From a virus (lineage: Duplodnaviria > Heunggongvirae > Uroviricota > Caudoviricetes): 7,396 nucleotides of DNA. This document shows, one piece after another, positions 1 through 7,396 of this stretch. The notes below the pieces were generated by a model. The model was not told where the DNA came from. It saw only the letters and a list, made by a program, of their open reading frames with translations, and did no database searches. Positions within the stretch are counted from its first letter, which is position 1. Every line of letters starts with the position of its first letter. The DNA lies in the IMG/VR virus record IMGVR_UViG_3300029310_000108, positions 1-7,396 of that record. The stretch is one strand, 5' to 3'. The translations under genes and the position numbers were made by a program.

Positions 1-1446
1 GATAAATTAAGAGCTTTCGCAAATGAGAGAGCGAGAATTGTTCTTGGAGAACAGATAAGAGAAAAGTCAAAAGGTCGCAATCATGATTTATCGGTTATGG
101 AGTATAAGGTGTTAAAAGAGGAAATTCGTTACGACGAATTGAAGGAACAGGCTGATGAAAAGCAACAGGAGAATGAGCAGTTGGAGCGTGAAAAGAAACA
201 GCTTGTGCATGAGTATGATACTTTATACATGCGAGTAGCGGTTAAACAGCTGGATTATGAGGAAGCTGATGAACGAGTAAAAGAGGCAAATGGGCGAAAT
301 GCCGTGCGGCGATTGCAGAACAGGCCAAAGAAGAAGTTAAGGAAGTGGCAGATGGCGACTAAGAGCAATATTTATAAAGATCCGCGCTGGCTGTCGCTGG
401 TGGAGAAATATAAAGACAATTGGGTACTGGCAGCAAAAGAATTGTTTGATATTGATTTAAGCCACCAGCAACAACAAATTGTTGAAGCTATACAGCCCAA
501 TAATGCAAAAGCTACTGTCACCACTCCGTATGGGATCGGACGACCGCAAGTGCTTGCTGTTATTAGTACCCTTTATACGATTATGTATCCTGATTCCCGG
601 ACAGTAATTGTTTATCCAAAATCAAATGTTTGCAAAAGAGGAATTGTTGCATATGTGTGGCAATGTTGGGAGGCATTGCTGAAAAAACAACCTTTTATCA
701 TTGAGTATTTTAAGGTCGGTGATAGCGGTCTGATGTTCAATGAATTTTGGGGAATGTGCTTTTGTAACTACCGCCTTAACTATGAAGATAGCATTGCAGG
801 TCACTACGCCGACCATCTTTTATTCATTATTGTGGATTCCGCACATATCAGCGATCGGGCATACAGCATTGTGTGGGCAAGCATGACTAGTGGTGATTCA
901 CGCATATTGCTCACTTCAATTCCGTCACCAGAGGAAATAGGCTTTTTTTATGATTCACATCATGGACGTGCTTTAGCTGAAGATAATCCGAGTGGTGTAT
1001 ATAAAGCCATTAAGCTGAGTGCGGAGGATTCACCATTTATTACCCAAGAATATCTTGATCATTTTGCCGAAAGGTATGGCGGGCGAAATAGTGATGACTA
1101 TCGTCGTATGATTCTTGGTGAGTTCCCTGGTATTAGGGAGGCTGTTCTTGAATCAGATATGCCGAAGACAATGCGCTTTTCGATGCCTGATGGTAGTGAA
1201 TGGACAATGCCATTACGAGTGATAGCCCGGCATCATGCGCAGCACCACGCCAAAAAACATGGCGTCACGACATTAGAATGGTTGAAATCGCACACTATTC
1301 CACTCTTCACTGCAGATCACAATGCTATCGTTGAGTGGGCAAAAACAATTCCGTGGGAGCATGTCGCTGAATATGCTCACATGCTAAAACCGCCGAAAGA
1401 CAGGCACGAAATTAGCTGGCTGACAGCCGAAAAAATCATTGAATGA
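1..1446 (+). CDS. 5'-partial ORF: N-terminal coiled-coil segment followed by an ASCE-type ATPase-like core with terminase-large-subunit-like motif order; no nuclease domain; product uncertain
   Basis: Frame 1 is open from base 1: there is no stop before the first ATG at 97 and no Shine-Dalgarno in front of that ATG, so the gene probably starts upstream of the window. Stop TGA at 1444-1446. Motifs read from the translation: Q-rich LSHQQQQIVEAI, Walker-B-like LLFIIVDSAH, motif-III-like ILLTSIPSP, then RRMILGEFPG. The expected Walker A position (TTPYGIGRPQV) lacks GK[ST]. Family assignment is from remembered motif patterns only. Confidence 0.55.
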   Translation, partial: DKLRAFANERARIVLGEQIREKSKGRNHDLSVMEYKVLKEEIRYDELKEQADEKQQENEQLEREKKQLVHEYDTLYMRVAVKQLDYEEADERVKEANGRNAVRRLQNRPKKKLRKWQMATKSNIYKDPRWLSLVEKYKDNWVLAAKELFDIDLSHQQQQIVEAIQPNNAKATVTTPYGIGRPQVLAVISTLYTIMYPDSRTVIVYPKSNVCKRGIVAYVWQCWEALLKKQPFIIEYFKVGDSGLMFNEFWGMCFCNYRLNYEDSIAGHYADHLLFIIVDSAHISDRAYSIVWASMTSGDSRILLTSIPSPEEIGFFYDSHHGRALAEDNPSGVYKAIKLSAEDSPFITQEYLDHFAERYGGRNSDDYRRMILGEFPGIREAVLESDMPKTMRFSMPDGSEWTMPLRVIARHHAQHHAKKHGVTTLEWLKSHTIPLFTADHNAIVEWAKTIPWEHVAEYAHMLKPPKDRHEISWLTAEKIIE

Positions 1447-1453
1447 TATCAAC

Positions 1454-1486
1454 AAAAAGCCCGCCAGGTCTGGCGGGCTTCTTTAT
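1454..1486. terminator. Bidirectional rho-independent terminator between convergent genes
   Basis: GC-rich inverted repeat GCCCGCCAG / CTGGCGGGC (about 1459-1478) flanked by AAAAA on the left and CTTCTTTAT on the right. On the minus strand it reads as stem-loop followed by TTTTTGTTG. It sits between the stop of the plus ORF (1446) and the stop of the minus-strand humD-like gene (1492). Confidence 0.65.
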
Positions 1487-1491
1487 GCGCC

Positions 1492-1881
1492 TTAAATCAC
1501 AGGTCTATAATCAAACTCCCCACTTCGGGCATCATTAATGACATGAGTGATCACACCAAACACAGCATTACTGCCCGTGCATCCATCGTCATCTACTGGT
1601 AACGCCTCTTTCTTCCCGGTGCTTAAATCCTCCAGGTGCTGGCGCGGATACTTCCTGTATCTCTTTATGCGATATTCACCCTCCATAGCGCATATAAGCA
1701 GTGAACCATCAACCGGAGTAAGTGAGGAATCAACCACCAGCAAAGCACCTTGCAATATTCCCTCACGGTGATGGCTGTCTGCCGCCCGCATGAAGTAGGT
1801 CGCGGAAGGATGTCTGATTAGTTGCTGATCAAGAGAAATGCGGCTCTCTGCATAATCCGCCGCAGGAGAAGGGAAGCCCAT
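1492..1881 (-). CDS. humD: UmuD'-like S24 (LexA/UmuD family) protein, HumD-like; begins at the residue equivalent to the post-cleavage N-terminus of UmuD'
   Basis: 129-aa ORF with ATG at 1881 and GAGG 9 nt upstream. The translation [30 protein letters not shown]... closely follows E. coli UmuD from its Cys24/Gly25 cleavage site ([29 protein letters not shown]). The Ser (ADSHH) and Lys (EYRIKRYRK) at the UmuD active-site positions are present, and the C-terminal VFGVITHVI matches UmuD VFGVVIHVV. Recalled from memory, not searched. Confidence 0.85.
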   Translation of the reverse strand: [129 protein letters not shown]

Positions 1882-1899
1882 AGCGTTTTACCTCAATGA

Positions 1900-1919
1900 T
1901 ACTGTTTATTCATACAGTA
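1900..1919. promoter_or_regulatory. LexA (SOS) box, CTGT-N8-ACAG
   Basis: Plus strand tACTGTttattcatACAGta: CTGT at 1902-1905, 8-bp AT-rich spacer, ACAG at 1914-1917. This matches the E. coli LexA consensus TACTGT(AT)4ACAGTA. It lies 19-38 bp upstream of the humD-like start codon and overlaps the putative -10. Confidence 0.8.
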
Positions 1920-1945
1920 TACATTGAAAAGGCATAGTTTGTGAA
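1916..1945 (-). promoter_or_regulatory. Putative sigma70 promoter of the humD-like gene (-35 TTCACA, 18-bp spacer, -10 TATACT), with the -10 overlapped by the LexA box
   Basis: On the minus strand: TTCACA (plus 1940-1945), 18 bp, TATACT (plus 1916-1921). The -10 hexamer shares bases with the first half-site of the LexA box. Predicted by eye only. Confidence 0.45.
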
Positions 1946-2004
1946 AGCGGGGTTTGTAGGCGCGCCACGCTGGGGGCTAATCACATTTCTCCCCCATCTT
2001 GCCG

Positions 2005-2256
2005 TTATTTTTTTGGTGCATCCTCGTTCTGATACACCGGATCGCTCCCTTTTGGCAACTGGAGGCTTAACTTCCGGTAGTGCCGTAGCCGTTCCATGAA
2101 ATAGGCGCGCAGGTTTTCCGGTTGCTCACGGGCCACCTGCTCTGCAATCACAGGTATATTCAGCCGTTCTTTGTAAGCAACGCCGCTGGCGGCAAGGTCT
2201 ACGTTCACCTTGTCTCGCTCTTCCTGGCTTTTAGCTGCTATATTTCGATCTGACAC
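2005..2256 (-). CDS. hot: Homologue of DNA polymerase III theta subunit (HolE-like; phage P1 Hot-like)
   Basis: 83-aa ORF with a GTG start at 2256 preceded by AGGAGG and a 6-nt spacer. The translation ...[47 protein letters not shown]... matches E. coli theta (...[46 protein letters not shown]...) nearly residue for residue in the core. Recalled from memory. Confidence 0.85.
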
Positions 2257-2288
2257 AAGAAACCTCCTAGAGTTAGTGGATCAGGCAC

Positions 2289-2645
2289 ATGCACAATAAC
2301 GTTCTCAATGTTAGCCGTTCAATTCAGACAATCAGAGACTGCACCAGTGTGGTGGCATCAATCCCATTGCGAAATAGCATAGACGAACTGCAAATTCGTG
2401 TATTGAACCTGAATCATGCCAATGCAATTAAGCAATTGCGCTTTATTTTGACGCTTAAAAGTGAAGCAGAGGGGGTAAAGCACAGCGTAAAAGTGTTTTC
2501 TGAGGCCATCCTGCTTAATGGGAGGCTTCGGCATCTGGTGAGGCCAGAACGTCAATATCATGACGTCCTGGCTTGTGAAAAAGACCTTCTTTCTGAAGTT
2601 CAGGATAGGGTGATCGATTTCGTTAAATCTCATCCCCTGCATTGA
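2289..2645 (+). CDS. Possible antisense-oriented hypothetical protein (118 aa) in the gap between two minus-strand genes; coding status uncertain
   Basis: Only protein-like ORF in the roughly 370-bp space between the minus-strand genes at 2630-2914 and 2005-2256. The translation has helix-like periodicity and no low-complexity runs, whereas the overlapping minus-strand ORF 2358-2642 looks like a shadow ORF. Against it: weak ribosome-binding site (CAGGCAC before ATG), several AGG/AGA/ATA codons, only 32 bp to the divergent hot start, and a 16-bp convergent overlap with the neighbouring gene. Confidence 0.3.
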   Translation: MHNNVLNVSRSIQTIRDCTSVVASIPLRNSIDELQIRVLNLNHANAIKQLRFILTLKSEAEGVKHSVKVFSEAILLNGRLRHLVRPERQYHDVLACEKDLLSEVQDRVIDFVKSHPLH

Positions 2646-2914
2646 GGGCAGGTGTTACCTTCCGCAAAGTAGGGAAAGCTGCTATCAAGTTCATCGCACC
2701 ATCTGCGATGGTCGTAGCACCAAAAAGTCTCCCACGACAAACAAAAAGACTTCATCCACCGGGACACTCGGTCGGGTATATCTGCTGGTGGTCGCTCCTC
2801 TGGCAATAATTTACCTGATAATTCCCTTTCCGCCCGCGCCAGCATTCCTTTGAGGCTGGCATTCTCTTTTTCAAGAATCTCTACGCGCGCCTGTAACTCA
2901 GCTTTCGTTGGCAT
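2630..2914 (-). CDS. Hypothetical small protein (94 aa): N-terminal coiled-coil-like segment and a Cys/Trp-rich C-terminal tail ending in CPQC
   Basis: Minus-strand ORF; start chosen at ATG 2912-2914 (MPTKAELQARVEILEKEN...) because GAGG lies 6 nt upstream. Upstream in-frame ATGs at 2926 and 2986 lack a Shine-Dalgarno. Overlaps the stop of the upstream gene (2898) by 17 nt. Five Cys in the tail (C-x7-C-x6-C-x15-C-x2-C). Confidence 0.45.
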   Translation of the reverse strand: MPTKAELQARVEILEKENASLKGMLARAERELSGKLLPEERPPADIPDRVSRWMKSFCLSWETFWCYDHRRWCDELDSSFPYFAEGNTCPQCRG

Positions 2915-3662
2915 GGTCCGCCTCATGTTTATCAGCCACCAGCGGCAATAAAGCCTTCGCCATTTCATGAACCAACATGGCATCAATGACGCCTAGCGTA
3001 TGGCCCGGCTTAATCTTTAATGCGGCCTCAAGATAGCCTCTTTCCAGAGTGGTTTTTACGCTTTTCCTGGGCGCTTGTTGGGAACTATCCGGAAAATCCG
3101 GATGGTTGCCAGCCTCATAAGCTACCCGCAACCAGTGCATGAATGTTTCCGCAGACACACAACCGCAGTCCACATCGATTTTCCCGCGCTGCTGCTCCAG
3201 CCATTGCTCAAAATCTAACTTGTAAGCCTTACTTTCAAGTTCATCACCATTGAACTCGACTTGCTGCGACGCTATGAGAGCGGCTTCGTATTGTTCGTGA
3301 GTGACAACTGACTGGTATTCATCGCTATCAAGGTCATGAATTGGAAGCTCAATCTCAAAACAAAAATTGCGCCCATCGAACTGGTCTTTTTTGCAGTCTG
3401 AGCCAAAAGCAAAAGTCGCGCATGGCACCATTAAATTGGCACTGAGCAGGCGACAATCGATCATACCATAAGGCCATCCGCCGCGCTTAGGCAACTCCTT
3501 CACTAACAAGTCGATCAGCTTCATTGTTTTACCATCTTTGCAAGTCGCCAAAGCCATTTGGGCAAGCTCCAATACCTCATCTGCCGTGTATCCAGCGCCG
3601 TGTCCATACATTTCGATGCGTGCAATAATCTCTGATATGCGAAATTTAGTGATTTTAGTCAT
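2898..3662 (-). CDS. Hypothetical protein (254 aa; 260 aa if the in-frame ATG at 3680 is used), Cys-containing, no family recognised
   Basis: Longest ORF in the array. ATG 3660-3662 overlaps the TGA stop of the upstream small gene as ATGA (MTKITKFRISEII...). An alternative in-frame ATG at 3678-3680 has AAGG 6 nt upstream. Stop TGA at 2898-2900. Seven Cys including VDCGC. Confidence 0.7.
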   Translation of the reverse strand: MTKITKFRISEIIARIEMYGHGAGYTADEVLELAQMALATCKDGKTMKLIDLLVKELPKRGGWPYGMIDCRLLSANLMVPCATFAFGSDCKKDQFDGRNFCFEIELPIHDLDSDEYQSVVTHEQYEAALIASQQVEFNGDELESKAYKLDFEQWLEQQRGKIDVDCGCVSAETFMHWLRVAYEAGNHPDFPDSSQQAPRKSVKTTLERGYLEAALKIKPGHTLGVIDAMLVHEMAKALLPLVADKHEADHANES

Positions 3663-3868
3663 AGTTTTATTTCCTTGCATGGTTCGCCTTTACGGCATAC
3701 GGCTACACGGTCATTTCTTACATTAACCACTGTCACCGTTCCGTCATCACATTGAATAACGATGAAAGGGTGTTCATTCTCTTTTGTGCAATGTTGCTGT
3801 TCTCCAGCCATTGCAGCCGGAGGATCAAATAGCGCCAGAACAAATGCCAACCTTAAAAAATGCTTCAT
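3659..3868 (-). CDS. Small secreted protein (69 aa) with predicted Sec signal peptide and four Cys in the roughly 47-aa mature part
   Basis: ATG at 3866-3868 with AAGG 4 nt upstream. N-terminus MKHFLRLAFVLALFDPPAAMA has a basic n-region, a hydrophobic core and an AxA-type cleavage site. Mature region GEQQHCTKENEHPFIVIQCDDGTVTVVNVRNDRVAVCRKGEPCKEIKL. Stop overlaps the next gene's start (ATGA). Confidence 0.6.
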   Translation of the reverse strand: MKHFLRLAFVLALFDPPAAMAGEQQHCTKENEHPFIVIQCDDGTVTVVNVRNDRVAVCRKGEPCKEIKL

Positions 3869-3875
3869 TTGGCCT

Positions 3876-3928
3876 TATCCGTTATCAAAATTGGAATATC
3901 CGTTATCACGAGCGTGATATCCGTTATG
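3876..3928. repeat. Three direct repeats of (A/T)TATCCGTTAT(C/G) at 21-bp phasing, with a 6-2-6 inverted repeat between copies 2 and 3; putative operator or iteron-like protein-binding array
   Basis: TATCCGTTATC at 3876-3886 and 3897-3907, TATCCGTTATG at 3918-3928. Inverted repeat ATCACG-AG-CGTGAT at 3905-3918. The array begins 8 bp upstream of the start codon of the gene at 3659-3868. Confidence 0.65.
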
Positions 3929-4081
3929 AAGTGGGGAATAAGACCACTTACCAATACCCTCCGCCTGACTCAAAGTTGGCGATAAGCCAGGCTGCGAAAA
4001 GAGTAACCCCTGCTCCAAAAACTCGACCGCATCAAAATCAAATACGGCTTAGCGGAATAGCACCAGCAGACCCACGCACTG

Positions 4082-4091
4082 NNNNNNNNNN
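4082..4091. other. Assembly gap (run of 10 N)
   Basis: Literal nnnnnnnnnn in the sequence; true length and content unknown. It lies in a roughly 320-bp non-coding interval between two minus-strand genes. Confidence 0.97.
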
Positions 4092-4192
4092 ACACCCCAC
4101 CGTACCCCATTTAACACCACCAGCTAATAAAATAAATAAACCGCAAAGGCATACAAACAAAAAAGTAATCCAAAATTTCTTTCTGTTTTTCA

Positions 4193-4486
4193 TTATGGTT
4201 GACTCCAGTTATCTTCAATAACAATACTTAACCTCTGAAGCCATTCTGCTAATTTCAGCATGGCTTCTCTTTCGCTTAAACCACGCGGAAAATCATCAAG
4301 CGAAATTGTTGGCTTGAAGTTCCCCGAATTATCCATTTCAACGGTCAGATTTTGCTCCAGCACGGTATTCCTTACGCGGCTATTGTGCCGAAGCAAATAT
4401 ACTGAGCGTGATTTATTGGTTTTGTGGTCGAGCTGATATTCGGTAAGTATCATCTGGCTTCCACCATGATTATTACCGCGCCACAT
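4193..4486 (-). CDS. Hypothetical protein (97 aa), no family recognised
   Basis: ATG at 4484-4486 preceded by GGAG and a 5-nt spacer; stop TAA at 4193-4195. Follows the upstream gene's stop by 12 nt. Translation MWRGNNHGGSQMILTEYQLDHK... Confidence 0.55.
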   Translation of the reverse strand: MWRGNNHGGSQMILTEYQLDHKTNKSRSVYLLRHNSRVRNTVLEQNLTVEMDNSGNFKPTISLDDFPRGLSEREAMLKLAEWLQRLSIVIEDNWSQP

Positions 4487-4498
4487 AATTACTCCGTG

Positions 4499-4927
4499 TT
4501 AATAAGAGAAATAGACCGTTGCAACACTGTTATATTGGTCGAACGAAATAGCATTTACTTCATAGCTGGTGGGCAGCTTCTTACCAAGAATGTAGCCAGG
4601 CCATGAGTTCCACGGAATTTCTGTTCGGTCGTCGTCTTGCCACATTACGCAACCAAGAGAGCCAACCATTTCACCATATCGCTTGCCACAAGTAACAAAG
4701 CCTATATTCGGTTTTGATTGTGTGACTGATACCGTGGTGGTGTTTGCGGAAGCATTGGTTGCAGCACGCCGCGCTTGCTCGCTGGCGATAGAAGCATTTA
4801 CTGCCGCCGTGGTCGCCGCTGTTGCCGCCGCTGTTGCCGCCGCTCCAGCGGCAATAACTGACGCGTGGGATAAATGACTGGCTGATAACATAGCCAGAAA
4901 AATAATAGCTCTTTGAAATTTAGCCAT
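4499..4927 (-). CDS. Secreted protein (142 aa): signal peptide, Ala/Thr-rich low-complexity linker, and a roughly 70-aa C-terminal domain with two Cys
   Basis: ATG at 4925-4927 with AAGGTG upstream. N-terminus MAKFQRAIIFLAMLSASHLSHA is signal-peptide-like. The linker AAGAAATAAATAATTAA is encoded by a GCN-rich 12-bp tandem repeat. C-terminal domain ...GFVTCGKRYGEMVGSLGCVMWQDDD... Confidence 0.7.
   Translation of the reverse strand: MAKFQRAIIFLAMLSASHLSHASVIAAGAAATAAATAATTAAVNASIASEQARRAATNASANTTTVSVTQSKPNIGFVTCGKRYGEMVGSLGCVMWQDDDRTEIPWNSWPGYILGKKLPTSYEVNAISFDQYNSVATVYFSY
4803..4845. repeat. About 3.5 tandem copies of a 12-bp unit (GCCGCTGTTGCC) inside the secreted-protein gene
   Basis: Plus strand gccgccgtggtc (4803-4814), gccgctgttgcc (4815-4826), gccgctgttgcc (4827-4838), gccgctc (4839-4845). 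It encodes the Ala/Thr-rich linker on the minus strand. Confidence 0.85.
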
Positions 4928-5201
4928 TGATATTCACCTTTATCGCGTACACCTTTACCGGTTTATCACCGAAGTGCGGATGTGTGATTGTCTTGATTTC
5001 ATATCCGTTATACGGGACGTCTATTCTGCGACTGGAATCGTCGCGCTTCGGATATCCCTTTGTGATAATCAGGCGGTCATATTCCCGGAACATGATTCGC
5101 TTATTCCAGTAGCCATTACACAAGCGATACTCTTCCGTTTTCTCTCCGCGAATCATGGCATCGAAGTATTCACCTTTGACGGCAAGTTGCAGGTTAGCCA
5201 C
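4920..5201 (-). CDS. ASCH-domain-like (PUA-like fold, DUF3850-type) small protein
   Basis: 93-aa ORF with a GTG start at 5199-5201 preceded by AGGAGG and a 6-nt spacer. Translation MANLQLAVKGEYFDAMIRGEKTEEYRLCNGYWNKRIMFREYDRLIITKGY... follows the remembered ASCH/DUF3850 pattern (..L.V.PEYF.A...G.KT.E.R.ND..F..GD.L.L.E..). Start overlaps the upstream stop and the stop overlaps the next start, both as TGGCTAA. Confidence 0.7.
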   Translation of the reverse strand: MANLQLAVKGEYFDAMIRGEKTEEYRLCNGYWNKRIMFREYDRLIITKGYPKRDDSSRRIDVPYNGYEIKTITHPHFGDKPVKVYAIKVNING

Positions 5202-5742
5202 GGTTAACCTCCTGCGGCGGCTCTGGTAGTGGCATCCAGTACAAGGCGTTCCCTAACCACGATAAAGTGCCGTCGCTCAACTCCACGTATTCCCCTTGTA
5301 CCTGTCCTGCCATATACTCGCCGTGCTTTGAATAAATTAAAATCCAATCATCTTGAGGGGGCATTCGCTCACTACAGCTTATCCAACCATCCGGAGTTAC
5401 CGGATAGTTGCCATTCACAAGGTCAGCTCGAACATATAGCGTGTCATCATGGTGCTGATTGTGGCTGCACCACGTTAATTCGCTTAACTCGCCATCTTCT
5501 GGCCATACTCCAGCCGTTTGCAGCCAGATATGGGCTGGCGCATCTTGGCAAGGTGTATTAACTGGCAACTTGTAAGTTTGGCTTACAGGTTCTGCACTAT
5601 CAGCTTCGCGCCGCTTCTGTAGCTCTGCTGCCATCGCTCTCACGACTTCAACTGGTGCCCTTGCAGCAAACTCTATGTTGGTGATCAGCTCATTAAGATA
5701 TTGCTCGCTGGGATACTGTTTCTTATTGGTAATAGTGGTCAT
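5194..5742 (-). CDS. Phage-type protein with DUF551-like C-terminal domain (182 aa)
   Basis: ATG at 5740-5742 preceded by AAAGGAGAGTGAT, coupled to the upstream stop as TGAtATG. The C-terminal region WISCSERMPPQDDWILIY...YWMPLPEPP matches the remembered DUF551 hallmark (W...HWMPLP.PP) seen in lambdoid prophage proteins. Confidence 0.75.
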   Translation of the reverse strand: MTTITNKKQYPSEQYLNELITNIEFAARAPVEVVRAMAAELQKRREADSAEPVSQTYKLPVNTPCQDAPAHIWLQTAGVWPEDGELSELTWCSHNQHHDDTLYVRADLVNGNYPVTPDGWISCSERMPPQDDWILIYSKHGEYMAGQVQGEYVELSDGTLSWLGNALYWMPLPEPPQEVNRG

Positions 5743-5743
5743 A

Positions 5744-6166
5744 TCACTCTCCTTTCCCCTTAAGCATGGCAGCACGGCAGGCATTCCAGCCTCTCACCTC
5801 TGCAATAGCGGCAACAGCATCAACCGCGTACATGCTAAGAGGGTTAGGCATTGGTTTTTCTTCCGGCACTACAGGCACTGGCGGTGCGGTATAAAACTTC
5901 GTCCCCAGCGGCAACAACTTCATCGCTTTTTCTCCCTTAATGATGCGATAAGTTGATTTCTCACCAAGATATACCGTTCCATCCATAACAAGGCCATGTC
6001 GCTGCTCTGAAACTTCACCAATAGCCTCTGCTTCCAGCGATGCCAGCGCGATACGAAACACATTGGCAAGCAGGCTGTCTGAAGATTGGTTATCGTGCGC
6101 CGGGTCGCTCAGGAAGCCTGTGATGAATGATTTAATCTCCGCACGTTCTTTGGTAATAGTGGTCAT
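5744..6166 (-). CDS. Hypothetical protein (140 aa) sharing its first five or six codons (MTTIT) with the downstream DUF551-like gene
   Basis: ATG at 6164-6166 with AAGGA 7 nt upstream; stop TGA at 5744-5746, 1 nt before the next ATG. The first 17 nt of coding sequence are identical to the next gene. Confidence 0.65.
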   Translation of the reverse strand: MTTITKERAEIKSFITGFLSDPAHDNQSSDSLLANVFRIALASLEAEAIGEVSEQRHGLVMDGTVYLGEKSTYRIIKGEKAMKLLPLGTKFYTAPPVPVVPEEKPMPNPLSMYAVDAVAAIAEVRGWNACRAAMLKGKGE

Positions 6167-6176
6167 GTGTTAGTCC

Positions 6177-6932
6177 TTAAACTGCCAGTTGCAATTGCAT
6201 TTCAAAGCGGTCGCGTTGTTCACAATACGCAAGAGAACCAGGGCTATTGTGTGCCTCAATCCGTTCTACCATTAATGCTGCGCGTGTCTCTTTACTTGCA
6301 GGTGCATAAGCCCCAGACCAGGCTTTATCAATACCGATGTTTCGAGCGACGTTCGTACTATCTGCGCTGGCTAAGGGTAATTTTGTGAATATCAGCGGAT
6401 TTAACATGCGCAACCCATGTAGTTTCGTAACCGGCTGACCATACTCATCAACAATGTGACGAATCAGGTCTTTCATTCTGGCTACCGCAAGAGTTGGGCG
6501 CTTTACGTCATAGTCGCCACAACTACCGATAGCCACTCGCGGAAACTCATTGCACAAATGAATAAATCGCTCGTCACTTTCATTCATGTGCCACACTGGA
6601 ACGCCAGCTAGTTTTCCGTGAGGCCACTCATTCAGAAGCGCATCATTTTCCTCCTCTCCGCCATCAATAACATCCGGGATAATGGCAAAATCGAATCCTG
6701 GGTGATTCTTCCAGCGAGCAACAAACTCGTAGTAATCGCTCCAGTCGATTTTGTTTTTGCCAGCTGCTTTCCAGGCGGTGAATGCACCGTTGTCCAGCGC
6801 GAACGACTGACAGTATTCAGCCGCGAGATTGATCTGGCCTGAATGCGCAAAACTGATAAACGCATGTCGCCCTTTCCATGCTCTCATTGCGCACGTATCA
6901 GGAGTAATAGGCCCACCGTGGTAGTGAATCAT
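6177..6932 (-). CDS. tRNA-guanine-transglycosylase-fold protein, minimal TIM-barrel core (DpdA-like candidate DNA 7-deazaguanine transglycosylase)
   Basis: 251-aa ORF; ATG at 6930-6932 preceded by AAGGAG and a 6-nt spacer, coupled to the upstream stop (TGAgATG). Motif correspondences with E. coli Tgt: SFAHSG ~ GNTFHL; ALDNGAFTAW ~ LTDSGGFQVF; RVAIGSCGD ~ YAVGGLAVGE; ASADSTNVARNIG ~ DMFDCVMPTRNARNG. It lacks the C-terminal CxCxxC...H zinc subdomain and the N-terminal roughly 50 aa of tRNA-TGTs. Recalled from memory, not searched. Confidence 0.7.
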   Translation of the reverse strand: MIHYHGGPITPDTCAMRAWKGRHAFISFAHSGQINLAAEYCQSFALDNGAFTAWKAAGKNKIDWSDYYEFVARWKNHPGFDFAIIPDVIDGGEEENDALLNEWPHGKLAGVPVWHMNESDERFIHLCNEFPRVAIGSCGDYDVKRPTLAVARMKDLIRHIVDEYGQPVTKLHGLRMLNPLIFTKLPLASADSTNVARNIGIDKAWSGAYAPASKETRAALMVERIEAHNSPGSLAYCEQRDRFEMQLQLAV

Positions 6933-6933
6933 C

Positions 6934-7396
6934 TCACTCTCCTTTGATGCGAATGCCAGCGGCGCGTGGCACATTAACTTCCACGATGCGCACTGTTGGT
7001 TTGTACATCTCAATCGCTGTCAGCCAGTCAGCTCCTGTCATGCGCTTTTCCGCATCGCCATTAGTCCACTGAACCGGTACACCAATAGCCTTCATCGCGA
7101 TTTCTATTTCCCCGGCAATGGCGCTTTTTCCGCAACCAGTAAAACCAGATACAACGACCAGAACTTCACCTTTGGCTGGTTTTATTCCCCGCGCTTCCAG
7201 TTCTGCTATGCGCTTACTTCCATCCGAGATAACACCTTCGTAATACTCACGCTGCTCGTTGAGTTTTGATTTTGCTGTTTCAAGCTCAACACGCAGTTTC
7301 CCTACTGTTAGCGCAATATCCTCGTTCTCCTGGTCGCGGCGTTTGATGTATTGCTGGTTTCTTTCCCGTTCATCCAGCAGTTCCAGCACAATCGAT
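6934..7396 (-). CDS. 5'-partial ORF (start beyond the right window edge): coiled-coil region followed by a Walker A motif (GFTGCGKS) close to the C-terminus; function unknown
   Basis: Reading frame is open to the window edge: the codons at 7390-7395 are in frame with no stop, and the GTG at 7387-7389 is only the first in-frame start inside the window. Stop TGA at 6934-6936. Translation ...RVELETAKSKLNEQREYYEG...GEVLVVVSGFTGCGKSAIAGEIEIAMK... Only about 50 aa follow the P-loop. Confidence 0.65.
   Translation of the reverse strand, partial: SIVLELLDERERNQQYIKRRDQENEDIALTVGKLRVELETAKSKLNEQREYYEGVISDGSKRIAELEARGIKPAKGEVLVVVSGFTGCGKSAIAGEIEIAMKAIGVPVQWTNGDAEKRMTGADWLTAIEMYKPTVRIVEVNVPRAAGIRIKGE

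Follow-up and report, generated by a model that had tools for sequence, protein, structure and literature searches.

The window analysed here, the whole stretch of 7,396 nucleotides (nt) from a tailed-phage record (Caudoviricetes; IMG/VR IMGVR_UViG_3300029310_000108, positions 1–7,396), carries two short repeated sequences at the gene junctions of a minus-strand operon. One, the 17-mer, forms the identical 5′ end of two adjacent genes, and the other, the 16-mer, joins the stop codon of one open reading frame (ORF) to the Shine-Dalgarno (SD) sequence and start codon of the next. Both recur among other phages between reassorted flanks, mosaic breakpoints in relatives fall on them, and empty-site variants, in which one copy stands where the window has a segment between two, are present in Escherichia coli. 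It is likely that both repeats are conserved linkers of a hyper-mosaic accessory operon, that is, expression joints that double as patches of recombination homology. The cassettes and the genes (lengths in amino acids, aa) that they join, all on the minus strand, are:

6150–6166, minus strand: 17-mer copy A, ATGACCACTATTACCAA, which opens the 140-aa gene with 5 2/3 codons (MTTITK).
5726–5742, minus strand: 17-mer copy B, with which the DUF551 gene begins (MTTITN).
6930–6945, minus strand: stop/SD/start cassette (16-mer) copy A, AAA GGA GAG TGA G ATG, with the end of the Ea22-like gene (..GIRIKGE-stop) and the ATG of the TGT-like gene.
5740–5755, minus strand: stop/SD/start cassette (16-mer) copy B, AAA GGA GAG TGA T ATG, with KGE and the stop codon of the 140-aa gene, GGAG, one spacer nucleotide and the ATG that starts the DUF551 gene.
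6167–6179, minus strand: intergenic linker, TAAGGACTAACAC, with the TAA that ends the TGT-like gene, the Shine-Dalgarno sequence AAGGA and the spacer ahead of 17-mer copy A.
6934–7389, minus strand, running off the window: 3′ part of the Ead/Ea22-like gene (PF13935, E = 4.5e-19), which ends ..AAGIRIKGE-stop and is the source of 16-mer copy A.
6177–6932, minus strand: TGT-like gene, 251 aa (phrog_887 queuine tRNA-ribosyltransferase, E = 6e-103), the conserved cassette body between both junction types.
5744–6166, minus strand: 140-aa MTTIT-family gene (no Pfam domain; phrog_60), the 424-bp unit missing in E. coli E100341.
5194–5742, minus strand: 182-aa MTTIT-family gene with a C-terminal DUF551 domain (PF04448, E = 1.4e-10; phrog_60).
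5756–6928, minus strand: two-gene segment of 1.17 kb (TGT-like and 140-aa genes), flanked by both stop/SD/start cassette copies and missing in E. coli 118UI.

The 17-mer, TTGGTAATAGTGGTCAT on the plus strand, is exact at 5726–5742 and at 6150–6166 (window sequence and repeat finder), as the earlier note had observed; on the minus strand both copies read ATG ACC ACT ATT ACC AA and open the ORFs 5194–5742 and 5744–6166. Even when up to three mismatches are allowed, the window holds just these two sites, and none of 200 dinucleotide-preserving shuffles contained two matches at that tolerance. We estimate that chance would give about 0.002 exact 17-nt direct-repeat pairs per 7.4 kb, and the second-longest exact direct repeat in the window measures 13 nt. 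Occurring only twice in the window, which was scanned in place of the whole genome, the 17-mer is not a general start context there.

The 16-mer, CAT[A/C]TCACTCTCCTTT at 5740–5755 and 6930–6945, agrees at 15 of 16 positions between its two copies, or at 16 of 17 when the preceding T is included (5739–5755 versus 6929–6945). The corresponding pattern, CATNTCACTCTCCTTT, has two sites in the window, 3 of 200 shuffles reach at least two at up to three mismatches, and we estimate about 0.1–0.3 such pairs by chance, so that the 16-mer pair taken alone is borderline. Both copies span a gene junction and do so in the same register (AAA GGA GAG TGA n ATG, with the upstream ORF ending ...KGE-stop), and both hold the TGA of the preceding gene, in agreement with the claim that the upstream stop codon is embedded in the repeat. 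At both, GGAG lies 6 nt ahead of the ATG and TGA 1 nt from it, which, judged from the sequence, is the geometry of a translationally coupled junction. The gaps between co-oriented ORFs in the window operon measure 1–10 nt.

The positions at which relatives lose homology to the window were mapped at 80 loci picked by the TGT-like protein alone, the cassettes not being used (the best 80 of 487 relatives in viral contigs, 90–100% identical in amino acid sequence). All 80 lose window homology at both cassettes. On the 3′ side of the TGT-like gene the homology ends within 6123–6181 in 80 of 80 loci, and in 50 of them at 6143/6144, directly after ATGACCACTATTACCAAAGAACGT (MTTITKER); the shared cassette at 17-mer copy A thus usually reaches 6143 (MTTITKER, 24 nt). 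On the 5′ side it ends within 6932–6967 in 80 of 80, most often at 6966/6967 (57 loci), the edge of a conserved island at 16-mer copy A (..AAGIRIKGE) that usually reaches about 6966, and in 14 loci at 6932–6935, at the ATG. Uninterrupted synteny across the cassettes was seen in none: 0 of 80 loci reach the body of the window's 140-aa gene, or the Ea22-like gene past 6967. Cassettes are also among the main hot spots in a map of the ends of high-scoring segment pairs (6132–6155, 6924–6935, 6960–6971 and 5736–5759).

Downstream of the TGT-like gene, about 30 different N-termini occur in the 80 loci, and the next gene starts with the exact 17-mer in 44, with 13 more differing from it at 1–2 positions. 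The linker at 6167–6179 belongs to a recurrent type, AGGA(C/G/T)TAAC(A/C)(A/C), which precedes many MTTIT genes and is represented, for example, by GTTTAAGGACTAACAAATGACCACTATTACCAAAGAACGT in 27 of the 80 loci. Many pairs of cassettes from these loci share 36–40 nt. Three sites in the linker plus start (GGACT/GGATT, ATT/ATA and GAACGT/GAGCGA) form four haplotype combinations, a hint of crossovers inside the cassette, although stepwise mutation could also produce them.

In addition, scans of viral contigs, in which the loci were ascertained on the motifs, retrieved at least 120 contigs for each repeat. For the 17-mer, 124 occurrences were listed, including the window's two. Each opens an ORF starting MTTIT(K/N), all but one of which run for at least 29 codons, and more than 30 different continuations follow among the matches listed. 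Single-linkage BLASTP clustering of the MTTIT proteins placed nearly all of them in one component through shared internal joints, and was replaced by clustering of fixed flanking DNA windows; this sorted 119 occurrences into 29 upstream and 17 downstream types, which are combined in 53 ways. Anchored pairwise extension of 92 unique sequences gave identity in the cassette only (at most 15 nt to the left and at most 12 nt to the right) for 2751 of 4186 pairs. Rightward identity ends mostly 0–12 nt past the 17-mer (the MTTITKER end), at 87–135 nt (the IALASLEAEPV joint) or beyond 200 nt, and leftward identity at 0–1, 6 or 11–15 nt (the AGGACTAACnn ribosome-site linker) or at full length. The 17-mer is thus a short sequence between unrelated flanks, as is the 16-mer.

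Some of the 16-mer matches are unrelated and due to chance. Among the enterobacterial phage matches, the upstream C-termini are ..(A/T)GIRIKGE-stop (Ea22-like), ..ACRAAMLxGKGE-stop (MTTIT-family) and ..NHLRTKGE-stop, and the downstream starts include MATLTKKE.., MIHYHGGP.., MALTHRELCQIA.., MAIAASYT.., MNGQISIV.. and MTTIT.. as well as others. The table of upstream against downstream types is well mixed, which indicates reassortment. Rightward identity mostly ends 0–3 nt past the ATG, and leftward identity at 0, 10–15 or 21–30 nt. In the contigs that were retrieved with the 16-mer but do not contain the exact 17-mer, a difference at a synonymous site in the five MTTIT codons is seen in only 7 of the starts that encode MTTIT, compared with 124 exact copies; this near-lack of synonymous variants suggests identity by descent, not convergence at the protein level.

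Empty-site variants of both repeats were obtained by building two hypothetical junction sequences and searching them against complete E. coli genomes. The construct with the Ea22-like end, one 16-mer and the DUF551 gene gave single-piece matches in several chromosomes (H94–H101, 93.5–97.8% identity). One of these arrangements, E. coli 118UI (L297), is annotated with a DUF551 gene directly after the Ea22-like gene; window 5568–5755 matches its 2501–2688 and window 6929–7215 its 2672–2958, and the two matches overlap by 17 nt on a single cassette copy. Base by base, the upstream flank of L297 follows window 6946–6987 and the downstream flank 5707–5739, with the switch inside AAAGGAGAGTGA, so that relative to L297 the window carries an extra 1.17 kb (5756–6928) between direct copies of the 16-mer. 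The construct with the TGT-like end, the linker, one 17-mer and the DUF551 gene gave a one-piece match in E. coli E100341 (L298; H116, 98.3%), in which the matches to window 5582–5742 and 6152–6966 share 15 nt of a single MTTIT start, and from which the 424-bp unit with the 140-aa gene is absent. The other matches to this construct mostly begin exactly at the base that corresponds to 5726, the edge of the 17-mer. Both recombinant arrangements, L297 and L298, keep the ORFs intact, as is expected of linkers at gene borders. These results indicate that the 16-mer copies of the window bracket a two-gene insert (TGT-like and 140-aa), and the 17-mer copies the 140-aa gene. The proposal of the earlier note, that the repeats are module boundaries used for the exchange of gene cassettes, is therefore supported by the breakpoints, by the reassortment of flanks and by deletion/insertion variants at single cassette copies.

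The same data bear on another explanation, which we regard as unlikely, namely that the cassettes are conserved for function only, as an efficient ribosome site, as a coupled stop-start, and because the N-terminal peptide is favoured or the 5′ coding region stays unstructured. Joints would then form by random illegitimate recombination, selection would keep those at gene borders (the Hendrix model; this view is summarised in PMC2327257), and the cassettes would mark borders without causing exchange. RNA of the start regions shows no more structure than shuffled controls do (z = +0.1 to +1.4), in keeping with initiation regions that are accessible, breakpoints also occur at gene borders that lack these cassettes (for example 5196–5219), and drifted variants retain the geometry and the amino-acid motif. 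However, identity of exactly 17–40 nt, synonymous sites included, precedes non-homologous HNH, DUF551 and pyrophosphohydrolase domains, the homology usually ends at the distal edge of the cassette, 24 nt into the next gene, rather than at the stop or start codon, and the empty-site variants carry one cassette copy precisely at the joint.

Exchange at the cassettes nevertheless has several observations weighing against it. A breakpoint within an identical stretch is indistinguishable from plain conservation of that stretch, and the loci compared are not phylogenetically independent. Hot spots also lie inside genes, away from both cassettes, at 5352–5423, 5580–5591 and 5880–5891 (internal joints of the MTTIT family) and at 7188–7283 (Ea22-like gene). 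The start in L298 differs from both 17-mer copies of the window at 2 positions, so that L298 does not simply derive from a parent resembling the window. The copies in the window share 17 nt, which is below the minimal efficient homology of about 30 bp (PMC2327257), and recombination between these two would therefore be infrequent. Finally, drifted cassettes keep the motif and the stop/SD/start geometry (AAGIGVKGE-stop; starts MSTIT, MTTFT and MATLTKKE), and purifying selection on function thus also contributes.

A third explanation is local: one MTTIT gene would have been duplicated in tandem, its body would have diverged or been replaced, and the 17 nt would be a remnant. The two genes are adjacent and co-oriented, both match PHROG 60 from residue 1, and the family is often found in tandem (two copies each in L021 and L052), with a third, diverged member in the window. 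However, a perfect 17 nt beside bodies that lack pairwise similarity (BLASTP E = 0.68) would be an impossible divergence gradient, and the gene directly ahead of the DUF551 gene is the Ea22-like one in L297 and the TGT-like one in L298. Moreover, each body occurs elsewhere in other contexts at 97–99% identity, and for this reason the duplication remnant offered in the earlier note as an alternative is not needed and disfavoured; we consider it very unlikely.

The pairwise comparison also qualifies the earlier statement that the two genes diverge completely after their shared start. This holds for the pairwise BLASTP search, but both proteins align from residue 1 to the same start position of PHROG 60, profile position 116 (182-aa protein, E = 7.5e-42; 140-aa protein, E = 4.6e-12), so that they are remote paralogs of a common modular architecture. 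Of the two, only the 182-aa protein has the DUF551 domain. The 17-mer is the 5′ end (MTTIT(K/N)) of this hyper-mosaic paralogous family. Its members are ordered as MTTITKER, a variable segment, the joint (A)RIALASLEAEPV, a variable middle, the joint YAAPPxPVVPEE and variable C-terminal modules, and representatives carry DUF551, a dATP/dGTP pyrophosphohydrolase domain, both of these, an HNH nuclease motif or no known domain. That HNH and DUF551 proteins have a common 17-nt start cannot be put down to divergence from a single ancestral gene.

Internal joints of the family are located at about 5563–5604 (ADSAEPVSQTYKLP) and 5360–5415 (PVTPDGWISCSERMP) in the 182-aa gene, and in the 140-aa gene at 6026–6055 (RIALASLEAE), at 5858–5893 (YTAPPVPVVPEE) and near the C-terminus (GWNACRAAML). 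In contig L096, a 411-aa ORF fuses the ..GWNACRAAML end of the 140-aa protein with the SQTYKLPVNTPCQDAPAHIW.. body of the DUF551 gene, which are separate genes in the window (5194–6166); the stop/SD/start cassette is thus also a point of gene fission or fusion. The window holds one further relative:

2898–3662, minus strand: probable third, older family member (phrog_60), with its ATG at 3662 and AAGGAA 8 nt upstream, starting MTKITKF... and matching ATGACCACTATTACCAAA at 13 of 18 nt.

This start is an internal ATG of a 260-aa ORF (2898–3680, minus strand), and MTKITKF.. is probably a diverged MTTITK start. A 30-nt inverted repeat, 90% complementary, pairs 3079–3108 with 5384–5413, within motifs encoded by two members of the family (..HPDFPDSS.. 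and ..YPVTPDGW..); the repeat has an internal palindrome (CCGGA..TCCGG), and a reverse match is also present in L299.

The window as a whole is an accessory "ea/exo-xis-type" operon of a P1-like phage-plasmid, of the kind that lambdoid and P22-like phages carry in their 'ea' region or between exo and xis. Its best whole-window matches are E. coli plasmids of about 90 kb, each covering at most 63%, and the humD, hot and phd/doc neighbours on these identify them as P1-like phage-plasmids. The matches are broken into 2–6 pieces, which indicates that the region is highly mosaic. The full arrangement is absent from the phage collection, in which any record covers at most 35% of 4900–7396, from the plasmid collection (at most 45% of 5100–7396) and from the E. 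coli collection (at most 63% of the window). An exact-protein look-up, by contrast, found the gene order Ea22-like, 251 aa, 140 aa, 182 aa and 93 aa on contigs of two other metagenome assemblies, which are 100% identical to the window over 4092–7275 and 4828–7275; the gene arrangement of the window is therefore real. The exact 140-aa protein was found in 3 metagenome contigs. Both identical contigs diverge from the window upstream of 7275, within the Ea22-like gene. Their divergence at ..AKSKLNEQREYY (about position 1892 in L358) is a further intragenic mosaic breakpoint and matches a hot spot of segment-pair ends at 7260–7283. The end of a metagenome contig, L359 3128–3536, is an inverted duplication of window 4430–4838 and looks like a hairpin-type assembly artefact.

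These matches also bear on the explanation that the repeats are a chance similarity or an assembly chimera at short repeats. On its side are the borderline 15/16 match of the 16-mer, the absence of the whole arrangement from any phage, plasmid or E. coli collection record, and the 58 matches of the 17-mer in species-representative genomes, compared with about 70 that we estimate by chance (596 Gb, both strands). Among these 58, only Escherichia and possibly Edwardsiella are plausible, and the search is uninformative on taxonomic range. However, the 17-mer pair was reproduced in 0 of 200 shuffles, each cassette is present, at the start of a gene or at a junction, in at least 120 viral contigs, and two other, independent assemblies hold the identical arrangement. 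Typical assembler k-mers are longer than 17 nt, by our own reasoning a further point against a chimera. We consider this explanation extremely improbable. A 40-mer junction query was found in 242 of 5426 E. coli genomes; it covers the TGT-linked junction only and says nothing of the number of cassette copies per genome.

Among the window ORFs, Pfam detected Ead_Ea22, DUF551 and a Peptidase_S24 (HumD/UmuD-like) protein, and NCBIfam a homologue of DNA polymerase III theta; for the four genes at the cassettes, neither NCBIfam nor a PDB sequence search returned a match. The earlier label "TGT-like" is fair, the 251-aa protein being assigned to phrog_887 by PHROGs, although it has no Pfam, NCBIfam or PDB sequence match. 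It forms a conservation island among hypervariable neighbours, and it could be a DNA- or tRNA-modifying transglycosylase. Next to the DUF551 gene lies:

4920–5201, minus strand: small ORF; the annotation of related records lists its counterparts as genes with an ASCH domain.

Elsewhere in the window, three direct repeats with 21-nt spacing (TATCCGTTATCA.., 74–78% identity to the first copy) at 3876–3940, apparently intergenic, look like iterons or operators. A GC-rich hairpin at 1454–1483 (AAAAAGCCCGCCAG / CTGGCGGGCTTCTT, 2-nt loop), where a 449-aa ORF and the humD-like gene converge, resembles a terminator that works in both directions. Positions 4083–4092 are 10 N (masked or unknown bases), which appear as XXXX in the ORF translations that span them.

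How the cassettes would work as both expression joints and homology patches can be outlined as follows; homology-driven exchange, the enzymes involved and actual translational coupling are what we infer from the DNA. The three codons that end the upstream ORF in AAAGGAGAGTGAnATG hold the GGAG Shine-Dalgarno sequence, and TGA lies 1 nt before the next ATG, which would couple the translation of the two genes. The sequence ATGACCACTATTACCAA(AGAACGT) is the standard start (MTTITKER) of modular proteins built from interchangeable segments. The same 16–40 nt recur at many gene borders of phages and prophages that meet in the same cells, and would for that reason act as homology patches. Recombination at these patches, by host RecA or phage single-strand-annealing recombinases, would swap, insert or delete whole ORFs, and at the internal joints protein modules might be exchanged as well. 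Each new arrangement would keep the frame and a working ribosome site, the exchange partners presumably being co-resident phages, prophages and phage-plasmids.

Such exchange has precedents. Linker-mediated exchange of modules between phages has been reviewed (PMC2839356), with boundary 'linkers' of lambdoid modules going back to Susskind and Botstein 1978 and Botstein 1980, as summarised in PMC2839356 and PMC2327257; by the same two summaries, the analysis of HK620 (Clark et al. 2001) described short, conserved flanking sequences common to a subset of related viruses. Like those linkers, the present cassettes are conserved among phages with unrelated adjacent modules, lie at module or gene borders, coincide with breakpoints and would allow exchange with gene order and expression preserved. 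They differ in being nucleotide-defined translation joints (stop, Shine-Dalgarno, start and the first 6–8 codons of the next ORF), a part of which is coding sequence common to non-homologous proteins, in operating at the scale of single genes and parts of genes in an accessory ea/exo-xis-type region, and in being found not only in lambdoid prophages but also in a P1-like phage-plasmid. The sequence features are thus those of Botstein/Clark-type linkers with a putative role in translational coupling. The kind of linker is already known, and these specific cassettes appear to be undescribed: full-text literature searches, in which subscription journals are thinly covered, found no description of these nucleotide cassettes.

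By analogy, the closest mechanistic counterpart would be the promoter-early stem-loop (PeSL) elements of T4-type phages (Arbiol et al. 2010, PMC2839356; PMC4122927). There too, small repeated expression signals flank non-essential ORFs in hyperplastic regions and bound insertions, deletions and replacements between close relatives. In contrast, PeSLs are transcriptional units, with a sigma-70-type promoter and a terminator hairpin that make each cassette autonomous, whereas the joints here are translational and lie inside one operon. The repeat finder detected no inverted repeat of the PeSL stem-loop type at either cassette, and junction folding gave z = 0.1–1.4; no promoter scan was made. An RNA element or riboregulator is not supported, no Rfam family being found in the window and the 80-nt RNAs of three junctions folding no better than shuffled controls.

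The Ea22/exo-xis genes of lambda and Stx phages (PMC10834534) share the neighbourhood and the families (Ead/Ea22 and DUF551) with the window and are likewise built in blocks, with common N-terminal parts and unrelated C-terminal domains. That study treats Ea22 mosaicism at the level of protein domains, without nucleotide joints, the MTTITKER start cassette or the KGE-stop-SD-ATG cassette. As to enzymes, RecA (Rec) and Red need a minimal homology of about 30 bp, with Red tolerating divergence, and RecET can use 5–13 bp at a frequency of about 1e-8 (PMC2327257). 'Homologous recombination (HR) traces' flank about half of recent lambdoid mosaics (De Paepe 2014, PMC3945230). For patches as short or diverged as these, Rad52-like phage recombinases with relaxed, homeologous recombination would be the likeliest enzymes (Martinsohn 2008, PMC2327257; De Paepe 2014, PMC3945230), although those studies concern longer, partly diverged flanking homology found statistically, whereas the cassettes here are discrete, very short, near-identical and repeated within one operon.

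A bolder idea, which we hold to be doubtful, is that the joints, whether or not the MTTITKER start accompanies them, make up a gene-cassette system that resembles an integron but needs no integrase. An ORF between two joints would be looped out, possibly as a circle like the mini-circles shown for PeSLs in T4 (PMC2839356; PMC4122927), and phage annealing recombinases might re-insert it at any joint in a co-resident lambdoid prophage or P1-like phage-plasmid, where it would arrive ready for translation. The nucleotide conservation of the joints, synonymous sites included, would then be kept because of the evolvability that it confers. A site-specific recombination site of the integron attC or shufflon type was rejected; the repeats are direct, not inverted, and the ten window ORFs scanned contain no integrase or recombinase domain.

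The origin of phage mosaics has long been debated between homologous exchange at conserved linkers and random illegitimate joining followed by selection. The cassettes of this window are a clear new example of a known route to phage mosaicism, and the locus is an unusually clean case for the linker route at nucleotide resolution, the linkers being translation joints of 16–40 nt that are repeated in one operon and across hundreds of phages. They link lambdoid prophages and P1-like phage-plasmids into one pool of accessory-gene exchange, which includes the TGT-like gene and nucleotide-pyrophosphohydrolase, HNH and DUF551 modules. For the annotation of these genes, it follows that a common MTTITKER start, or common internal joints, do not make proteins orthologous.

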